Source: a virus
Taxonomy: Duplodnaviria > Heunggongvirae > Uroviricota > Caudoviricetes
Virus record (IMG/VR): IMGVR_UViG_646564533_000015
Coordinates: 1-57,176 of that record
Reading direction: 5' to 3' (one strand)
DNA length: 57,176 nucleotides
Part shown: positions 46,501 through 49,500 of the stretch, one piece after another
Layout: each line of letters begins with the position of its first letter
Position numbering within the stretch: position 1 is the stretch's first letter
Position numbers: made by a program

Positions 46501-49500
46501 GACTATTTATGTTAATCCTGACCGCGGACAAAACAGAAAAGTATCTGATAGAGGTCTTACATCTCGAGACAGGAGGAGAATAGCGAGATGGGAAAAGAGG
46601 ATAGCATATGCATTAAAAAACGGTGTAACACCTGGATTTAATGCTATAGATGACGGTCCTGAATATAAGATTAATGAAGACCCAATGGACAAAGTTGACA
46701 AAGCATTAGCAACACCATTTCCTCGCGATGTCGAAAAAATTGAAGATGAAAAATATGAGGATGTAATGCACAGAGTTGTTAATCACGCTCACCAACGAAA
46801 TCCAAATAAAAAATGGTCATAGCCCACTTCGGTGGGTTTTTTATTGGCTGAACTAACCGAATTTATTACAGCAAGCCACGCAGTGAAATGGGTGTGACTT
46901 GTGTTGGTCGCCAGAAAATGAAATTAGGCAGCAAACCACTTATTTGAGGTGAGATATGACAAAATCATGGAGCGTACCTTTTCCTGAATCAGAAACTGAA
47001 CATGATGGAATGCCTGTTTTCTGGAGATTCCAGGCGACAGTTGAAGAAGATGGGATAAAAATATTCGCACTTCAATATATAGCTTTTCATCAGACAGAGC
47101 ATTATGCATGGTTGGTTCCTGCGCATTGGATTGTTAATTTTAAACCAGCACCAAATCAGTGGTTACAGGAATGGAAACAAAGGAGAAATAGATATGCAAT
47201 TAAGAAAGTAGCAAAAAATGCAGAAAGATCTTTTGCATTCCCAACGAAGAAACTTGCCATTGAGAGTTTATTGCGCCGGAAGAAATACCATTTAATGAGA
47301 ATCAAACAAGATTTGGCTGTTGTATCAACTCTTGTTGATGGGATGAAGAATATTGATACATCAACACCAGATATTGAATATAACTTTGGGCACAACCAAG
47401 AAACAGAAAATTGGGTATTTTATTAGTACGAGTAAGCACTGTGTATTCATTCCAACGAGTGAATACACGGAGCAATGTCGCTCGTAACTAAACAGGAGCC
47501 GACTTGTTCTGATTATTGGAAATCTTCTTTGCCCTCTAATGTGAGGGCGATTTTTTTCTGTGAGGATATGAACAGATGTCAAACATCAAAAAATACATCA
47601 TTGATTACGACTGGAAAGCATCAATAGAAATTGAAATCGACCATGACTTAATGACAGAGGAAAAACTTCACCAGATTAATAATTTCTGGTCAGACTCTGA
47701 ATACCGACTCAATAAACACGGCTCTGTATTAAATGCTGTATTAATCATGCTGGCGCAACATGCTCTGCTTATAGCAATTTCAAGCGACTTAAATGCATAT
47801 GGTGTTGTGTGTGAGTTCGACTGGAATGATGGAAATGGTCAGGAAGGATGGCCTCCAATGGATGGTAGCGAAGGAATAAGAATTACCGATATCGATACAT
47901 CAGGAATATTTGATCCAGATGATATGACTATCAAAGCCGCCTGAGCGCGGCGTTACCGCATACCAATTACGCTTCACTCGAGGCGTTTTTCGTTATGTAT
48001 AAATAAGGAGCACACCATGCAATATGCCATTGCAGGGTGGCCTGTTGCTGGCTGCCCTTCCGAATCTTTACTTGAACGAATTACCCGTAAATTACGTGAC
48101 GGATGGAAACGCCTTATCGACATACTTAATCAGCCAGGAGTCCCGAAAAATGGATCAAACAATTATGGCTATCCAGACTAAATTCACTATCGCCACTTTT
48201 ATTGGCGATGAAAAGATGTTTCGTGAGGCCGTCGACGCTTATAAAAAATGGATATTAATACAGAAACTGAGATCAAGCAAAAGCATTCACTACCCCCCTT
48301 TCCTGTTTTCCTAATCAGCCTGGCATTTCGCGGGCGATATTTTCACAGCCATTTTCAGGAGTTCAGCCATGAACGCTTATTACATTCAGGATCGTCTTGA
48401 GGCTCAGAGCTGGGCGCGTCACTACCAGCAGATCGCCCGTGAAGAGAAAGAGGCAGAACTGGCAGACGACATGGAAAAAGGCCTGCCCCAGCACCTGTTT
48501 GAATCGCTATGCATCGATCATTTGCAACGCCACGGGGCCAGCAAAAAAGCCATTACCCGTGCGTTTGATGACGATGTTGAGTTTCAGGAACGCATGGCAG
48601 AACACATCCGGTACATGGTTGAAACCATTGCTCACCACCAGGTTGATATTGATTCAGAGGTATAAAACGGATGAGTACAGCACTCGCAACGCTGGCTGGG
48701 AAGCTGGCTGAACGTGTCGGCATGGATTCTGTCGACCCACAGGAACTGATCACCACTCTTCGCCAGACGGCATTTAAAGGTGATGCCAGCGATGCGCAGT
48801 TCATCGCATTGCTGATCGTCGCCAACCAGTACGGCCTTAATCCGTGGACGAAAGAAATTTACGCCTTCCCTGATAAGCAGAACGGCATCGTTCCGGTGGT
48901 GGGCGTTGATGGCTGGTCCCGCATCATCAACGAAAACCAGCAGTTTGATGGCATGGACTTTGAGCAGGACAATGAATCCTGCACATGCCGGATTTACCGC
49001 AAGGACCGTAATCATCCGATCTGCGTTACCGAGTGGATGGATGAATGCCGCCGCGAACCATTCAAAACCCGCGAAGGCAGAGAAATCACGGGGCCGTGGC
49101 AGTCGCATCCCAAACGGATGTTACGGCATAAAGCCATGATTCAGTGTGCCCGTCTCGCCTTCGGATTTGCTGGTATCTATGACAAGGATGAAGCCGAGCG
49201 CATTGTCGAAAATACCGCATACACTGCAGAACGTCAGCCGGAACGCGACATCACTCCGGTTAACGATGAAACCATGCAGGAGATTAACACTCTGCTGATT
49301 GCCCTGGACAAAACATGGGATGACGACTTATTGCCGCTCTGTTCCCAGATATTTCGCCGCGACATTCGCGCATCGTCAGAACTGACACAGGCCGAAGCAG
49401 TGAAAGCTCTTGGATTCCTGAAACAGAAAGCCTCTGAACAGAAGGTGGCTGCATGACACCGGACATTATCCTGCAGCGTACCGGGATCGACGTGAGAGCT

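Follow-up and report, generated by a model that had tools for sequence, protein, structure and literature searches.

A sequence homologue of the lambda small RNA PreS lies between a gp45/L0079 gene and ea10 in the early-left operon of a lambdoid prophage

The stretch of DNA considered here, referred to as the window, is the whole of IMG/VR virus record IMGVR_UViG_646564533_000015 (57,176 nucleotides, nt), and carries on its + strand the early-left (pL) operon of a lambdoid prophage in the order cI, N, nun, ORF1, ea10, cIII, (kil), gam, bet and exo. Its subject is the interval 46956-47944, where two open reading frames (ORF1 and ORF2) are separated by a structured spacer. This interval is very probably a standard mosaic lambdoid pL segment, composed of a gp45/L0079 gene (ORF1), a block formed by the hairpin H0, the small RNA (sRNA) PreS and the terminator tL2a, and the gene ea10 (ORF2). 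On sequence grounds, the RNA of the spacer is a homologue of PreS, a characterised trans-acting sRNA that enhances replication. Judged by its identity, the content of the segment is already known, as it is a 98-100% copy of lambda, HK97 and 933W sequence that has long been available.

The PreS (LPR1) homologue spans 88 nt at 47470-47557 (+ strand) and was delimited with the lambda primers and by alignment. Its 5′ end (+1 = 47470) was set by the lambda lpr1 cloning and T7 primers, which start GAGCAATGTCGCTCGTAACT, and its 3′ end by the primer ending in the tL2a tail. Alignment of the window with lambda and 933W places the start of homology to lambda at ~47435, 4 nt before H0, from where it runs at 98-99% identity on through ea10. 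H0, both internal stem-loops, the entire seed and the terminator stem are the same as in the lambda ral-ea10 spacer (lambda ~34011-33924), and within PreS the window departs from lambda by two substitutions in the terminator loop and one A missing after the T-run (T7 instead of T6-A-T). The seed, or target-pairing region, UGUUCUGAUUAUUGGAAAUCUUCUUUG (47505-47531, +), is identical in the window, lambda and 933W; it contains the triplets mutated in LPR1-M1 (CUG) and LPR1-M2 (GAA), changes that abolish regulation, and both triplets are intact in the window. With the dnaN leader of Escherichia coli K-12 (MG1655; -47 to -17), the window PreS is predicted by RNAduplex to form the same duplex as lambda PreS. 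The 3′ module is a GC-rich hairpin of 6 G-C/A-U pairs (8 with flanking pairs) followed by U7. Model R1 matches the window at 47434-47559 with 138.9 bits, and the whole spacer folds with z = -4.85. The gene upstream of the PreS block is ral in lambda and gp45/L0079 in the window, while both have ea10 immediately downstream.

The lambda RNA was described as located "between ea10 and ral", with a GC-rich hairpin and poly-U tail that constitute tL2a, and is detected as bands of ~88 and ~68 nt (processed), enriched on Hfq and Hfq-dependent; it is made in the lytic and not in the lysogenic cycle (bioRxiv 10.1101/2024.10.31.621285). Overexpression of PreS raises a dnaAN-gfp fusion more than 4-fold, an effect that is lost with a 3-nt seed mutation and regained by a compensatory change in the target. 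It raises DnaN protein, not DnaA or RecF; structure probing with PreS indicates that the dnaN ribosome-binding site becomes exposed; and alaS is repressed. Deletion of the seed results in less phage DNA post-induction and in a 2- to 4-fold drop in spontaneous phage release, which is Hfq-dependent (all from bioRxiv 10.1101/2024.10.31.621285). Because the window PreS is near-identical to lambda PreS, this mechanism can be carried over to it. Transcripts from pL would yield PreS after induction or infection, and Hfq would bind its U-tail. The single-stranded seed would then pair with the dnaN leader within the dnaA-dnaN mRNA and open the structure hiding the dnaN ribosome-binding site, leading to more β sliding clamp and more phage DNA replication. 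PreS would also repress alaS.

Neither PreS nor tL2a is annotated in current resources. RefSeq annotates nothing in the ORF1-ea10 spacer, and a search of 46000-48400 against Rfam 15 at a permissive E-value returned only the cIII thermoregulator, with no family for PreS or H0. The 66-nt HnrS, a multicopy prophage sRNA of enterohaemorrhagic E. coli, was considered as a possible PreS and rejected, as it lies in the late region; Tree et al. 2014 make no mention of the PreS locus. The results of a scan of genome contigs for the PreS core were dominated by contigs of contaminating lambda DNA and by fortuitous matches in unrelated taxa. Several of these loci (L014, L020, L032 and others) are low-coverage contigs of ~48.4-48.5 kb with lambda sequence in assemblies of Shewanella, Pseudomonas, the Bacillus group and other unrelated organisms, and look like lambda DNA contamination.

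The terminator-like hairpin that the original prediction placed at 47531-47557 is present and is the 3′ end of this RNA. The intrinsic terminator tL2a, which doubles as the 3′ Hfq-binding module of PreS, was found by the terminator scan at 47529-47557 (+) and is homologous to lambda tL2a; its stem, GCCCTC/GAGGGC, occupies 47531-47536 and 47543-47548 and is followed by T7 at 47551-47557. In lambda, termination at tL2a in vivo and its read-through by N-modified polymerase are established biology. N-modified RNA polymerase would likewise pass tL2a here and enter ea10-cIII-kil-gam-bet-exo. The proposal that the spacer hairpins are N-antiterminated terminators probably holds for tL2a and fails for H0, which is followed by no T-run. 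The accompanying view of the structured RNA as regulatory punctuation does not stand, since the region carries the homologue of a trans-acting sRNA. The same block has been marked in other phages: the GenBank record of Sf6 labels it "bsq4; boundary sequence" and "terminator; homology to phage lambda; tL2A", and in the HK97 record it is marked as a putative terminator. A second hairpin of terminator type, ACGCTTCACTCGAGGCGT followed by TTTTT, occurs between ea10 and cIII (47969-47986, +). Its sequence adjoins the PreS block directly in phages without ea10, and it is possibly a further member of the tL2 cluster.

ORF2 (47576-47944, +; 122 amino acids, aa), preceded by a GAGGA Shine-Dalgarno sequence at 47562-47566 (+), is identified as lambda ea10 by its sequence identity. 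Its product shares 120/122 residues with lambda Ea10 (lambdap45, once annotated 'ssb'), which is also 122 aa long; V25L and S114P are the two differences. It matches PF10800 (DUF2528) over profile positions 1-104 of 104 (E=2.6e-46, 156.9 bits vs a cutoff of 22) and phrog_646 (E=2.4e-70). Synteny agrees with this assignment, as ea10 lies immediately upstream of cIII (48017) in both phages. The window also shares with lambda the Shine-Dalgarno sequence and, downstream, the cIII thermoregulator element; nothing of substance differs. This element, Lambda_thermo (RF01804), was found by Rfam across the cIII start (48004-48062, +; 88.5 bits). The 933W copy of ea10 is annotated "similar to Ssb, Ea10". 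Ea10 is acidic (isoelectric point, pI, 4.28). It is an abundant lambda early protein that was formerly mistaken for Kil (PMC3961180), its gene was non-essential in a CRISPR interference screen (PMC10695390), and its role in lambda is "not fully understood" (bioRxiv 10.1101/2024.10.31.621285).

Several points weigh against this account of the interval. The function of PreS in the window is carried over by analogy from lambda, and the work on PreS consists of a preprint (bioRxiv 10.1101/2024.10.31.621285) and a review citing that preprint. The protein part of the explanation, covering ORF1 and Ea10, is descriptive. Finally, PreS +1 coincides with the base of H0, and the promoter scan finds no promoter-like site overlapping H0 or upstream of PreS +1.

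H0 occupies 47439-47470 (+) and forms a 14-base-pair (bp) stem (12 Watson-Crick and 2 G-U pairs) capped by the loop CAAC, with a fold energy of -18.8 kcal/mol that none of 500 shuffles equals. The 9-bp-stem inverted repeat noted in the original prediction, GTGTATTCA (47441-47449) and TGAATACAC (47460-47468), exists and is the core of this longer stem. The last paired base, G47470, is PreS +1, and the hairpin is identical in lambda and 933W. The sequence following the stem is AGCAATGTCG, which contains no T-run, and the terminator scan does not report H0; its role as an intrinsic terminator was rejected on the lack of a T-run. A PreS promoter inside H0 was rejected as well: the scan detects nothing there, and no -10-like sequence is common to the stem variants.

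These variants came to light when the PreS block was gathered from phage records and 119 IMG/VR loci. H0 occurs in four unrelated sequence versions: the lambda type (CUGUGUAUUCAUUC/GAGUGAAUACACGG), the ST104 type (AAUGACCAU/GUGGUCAUU), the L093 type (AUAGCAGA/UCUGCUAU) and the L040 type (AAUGCGGA/UCCGCAUU). All four fold into hairpins, with energies of -12.9 to -18.8 kcal/mol, that stop 0-2 nt short of GAGCAAU. In a covariance-model alignment of 45 loci, both partners vary in 8 of the 11 H0 pairs, and pairing is kept in 96.4% of cells. Over the whole structure, 94.2% of cells pair, compared with 83.5% in shuffles (none of 500 attains 94.2%) and at most 51% with slid partners. In the same alignment, the second PreS stem-loop undergoes an A-U to G-C exchange (31 vs 14 sequences). 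This alignment had been fitted to the model, and the H0 variants probably go back to only a few replacement events, perhaps three or four. It is concluded that a hairpin at this position is under selection, and it might serve to define the 5′ end of PreS or to stabilise the upstream mRNA.

H0 is judged about as likely as not to function as an RNA element within the PreS module, either setting the PreS 5′ end via an endonuclease or shielding the 3′ end of the upstream mRNA after cleavage; it would then be neither a chance repeat nor a DNA-level recombination site. Beyond the paired changes, this reading is favoured by the start of the lambda-shared homology block just ahead of the hairpin, by the constant adjacency of H0 to GAGCAAU (PreS +1) despite four unrelated stems, and by the lack of both a T-run and an overlapping promoter-like site. 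Against it stand the possibly small number of stem replacements, the fitting of the alignment to the model, and the stem length of 14 bp, which is less than expected of a classical RNase III substrate. In addition, the preprint reports no longer, H0-containing precursor (bioRxiv 10.1101/2024.10.31.621285), and the Sf6 authors interpreted the block at the DNA level, as a 'boundary sequence' of the mosaic.

Comparison across relatives places the PreS block as an island between variable genes. Crude clustering of the 124 loci with enough flank gave 26 upstream and 32 downstream flank types. The slot downstream of the block is a swap site that holds ea10, a P22 gp17-like 'superinfection exclusion' gene or Sf6 gp33, or leads to cIII directly; examples are PA28 (locus L003), Sf6 (L006), ST104 (L008) and HK97 (L157). 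A longer PreS-like variant of ~104 nt is found in P22-like Salmonella phages (ST104, UPF_BP1) and in IMG/VR contigs (L007, L008, L040, L043, L053, L093, L100, L136 and others). It shares with the window the 5′ stem-loop (GAGC...GCUC), the GUUCUG core, the presence of a terminator and an equally spaced hairpin upstream, and keeps the second stem-loop through the A-U to G-C exchange. It differs in having 13-16 nt inserted into the seed region, a terminator stem reading GCCGC.../...GCGGC and other H0 stems, the window being of the lambda type. Because of these three differences, the targets of the P22-like variants may differ from those of the lambda type. Recombinants between the ~104-nt and lambda-type forms exist, e.g., L100 and L064. 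The published survey of PreS conservation used a threshold of at least 92% identity (bioRxiv 10.1101/2024.10.31.621285) and would therefore miss the ~104-nt variants.

ORF1 (46956-47426, +; 156 aa) encodes an early-left accessory protein. Its product is 100% identical to 933W L0079 and 99.4% identical to HK97 gp45, and matches the phrog_1636 profile over its full length (E=2.7e-112, positions 1-156 of 156). In HK97 and 933W the gene has the same position, between N and the PreS block; in the window, nun and a remnant of the N 3′ end intervene between N and ORF1. HK97 has cIII directly after the PreS block and no ea10, whereas the window has ea10. A word-indexed search found only 33 relatives of ORF1, all enterobacterial and all "hypothetical". 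An exhaustive profile search extended the set to 87 proteins and reached into a looser family of 130-155 aa proteins; these relatives map exclusively to PHROGs without an assigned function, and Pfam has no family for them. Pfam scanning of 46 family members gave chance matches only, NCBIfam has no family for ORF1 or ORF2, and sequence searches of the PDB with both proteins returned nothing meaningful. No functional literature was found on L0079, DUF2528 or HK97 gp45.

The AlphaFold2 model of ORF1, built on a deeper alignment, has a predicted local distance difference test score of 95.3 and a predicted template modelling score of 0.82. In the predicted fold, three long β-strands are accompanied by short helices and one short strand, a 33-residue helix spans residues 98-130, and the C-terminal tail is extended and conserved. 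Foldseek with this model against BFVD gave 12 matches at E<1e-3, all of them uncharacterised proteins, from phages of Erwinia, Tenacibaculum, Achromobacter, Rhizobium, Delftia and Cellulophaga. No structural analogue of the fold was found in the PDB, where all structural matches have Z<=3.4, below the meaningful threshold. The Foldseek check suggested by the original prediction was thus made for ORF1 and led to uncharacterised proteins only. The gp45/L0079 family spans temperate and lytic phages of many hosts and is found in Shiga-toxin phages. In Pectobacterium and Brenneria prophages an orthologue of ORF1 lies directly upstream of xis-int, and remote relatives, in lytic as well as temperate phages, are located within clusters of small early genes. 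The contexts of the remote homologues are short contigs or clusters of hypothetical genes.

ORF1 and Ea10 are best described as dispensable early accessory proteins. A more specific role for ORF1, as a nucleic-acid- or host-factor-binding regulator of early development (transcription, RNA processing, replication or recombination) unconnected with defence, is a tentative reading that is rather less probable than its negation. The protein has an overall pI of 9.1, and between its acidic ends the core residues 61-120 are strongly basic (pI 11.1); as a working guess, ORF1 may bind nucleic acid or a host protein through this core. The same reading has to contend with structural matches that all stay below the meaningful Z-score, with the lack of any DNA-binding family match, and with the weakness of neighbourhood as evidence in mosaic early regions.

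The original prediction had favoured another role for the two genes. In that account, one or both of ORF1 and ORF2 encode proteins, made right after induction, that counter restriction or other defences or exclude superinfecting phages, and the hairpins merely punctuate transcription. This is considered improbable. ORF1 does sit in the slot that sieB and ral hold in lambda, and these two genes likewise provide accessory functions that are dispensable and expressed early or from the prophage. Downstream of PreS the gene slot varies strongly, remote relatives of ORF1 are found in early small-gene clusters, both genes are AT-rich, and ea10 at least is non-essential. Ea10, small, abundant and very acidic (pI 4.3), would suit a DNA-mimic type of inhibitor. 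However, lambda Ral has 66 aa as opposed to the 156 aa of ORF1, the predicted fold differs, and no sequence similarity to Ral or SieB is detectable. The Ral and SieB families are absent among the Pfam and PHROG matches of ORF1 and ORF2, and neither protein matches an anti-defence family in these two libraries, which are general ones searched without a dedicated anti-defence profile search. PADLOC gave one chance-level match for ORF1 (Cas1_II, E=0.018, 12 bits) and none for Ea10. That Pfam, PHROGs, NCBIfam and PADLOC reveal no named family, and no resemblance to Ral or SieB, is absence of evidence and not disproof. The missing structural analogue for ORF1 and the missing literature for both proteins also speak against an anti-defence role, and the hairpin block, which carries the PreS homologue, is not mere punctuation. 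The combined proposition that gp45/L0079 is a new early host-takeover or counter-defence effector, and that H0 is an unnoticed maturation or stability element of a broader PreS family reaching P22-like Salmonella phages with altered seeds, is regarded as doubtful.

Upstream of ORF1, the cI gene (45211-45861, +) is followed by an N gene of the phage-21/933W kind (46146-46481, +; phrog_271) and by nun (46490-46822, +), whose product is 99.1% identical to HK022 Nun. The prophage therefore carries the N antiterminator plus Nun, a transcription-termination factor that excludes lambda. As far as sequence comparison can tell, nun is the only recognisable exclusion gene near the locus, and it lies outside the coordinates of the original prediction. 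The order N-nun-gp45 is also found in Stx1a phages and PA28. Between nun and ORF1, a non-coding remnant of the N gene 3′ end (46855-46947, +) reads RIYYSKPRSEMGVTCVGRQKMKLGSKPLI*. This parallels the C-terminus of the intact upstream N, and over roughly its last 70 bp the remnant matches the end of 933W N exactly; PGAP labels it a pseudogene ('regulator, missing N-terminus'). The remnant looks like a scar of the recombination that inserted the nun module.

Just 3′ of nun and ahead of ORF1, the terminator scan reports a strong intrinsic terminator (46821-46845). With this terminator ahead of ORF1 and no promoter-like site belonging to ORF1 itself, it should mainly be N-modified polymerase from pL that reaches ORF1, PreS and ea10. 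The possibility that ORF1 is a moron with its own promoter was rejected, as the scan found no promoter-like site between the nun terminator and ORF1.

With regard to gene content, the two ORFs of the original prediction exist on the + strand with the boundaries and lengths given above, and their pL operon position between N and cIII/kil/gam, the lambda sieB/ral slot, was correctly recognised. Their number was understated, as three ORFs (nun, ORF1 and ORF2) lie between N and cIII, the first being nun. Of the two genes regarded as unknown, ORF2 is not, being lambda ea10 at 98% identity, and ORF1 remains so, its family phrog_1636 having no known function. The lower G+C content is borne out (ORF1 0.363 and ORF2 0.385, vs 0.456 for cI, 0.50-0.53 for gam/bet/exo and 0.508 for the whole window); the low-GC tract already begins at ~46250, before ORF1, and takes in nun. 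Downstream, cIII (48017-48181, +; PF02061) is followed by kil.

The window itself is of little consequence, as the whole arrangement is common: it is present in 280 of 5426 complete E. coli genomes (~5%), one of which is 100% identical. The useful outcome is a corrected annotation that identifies ORF2 as ea10 and places PreS and tL2a in the spacer. A modest residual novelty lies in the confident, unmatched fold predicted for gp45/L0079 and in the structural conservation of H0. The conservation of this hairpin over unrelated sequences suggests an undescribed step in the making of the replication-boosting sRNA PreS.

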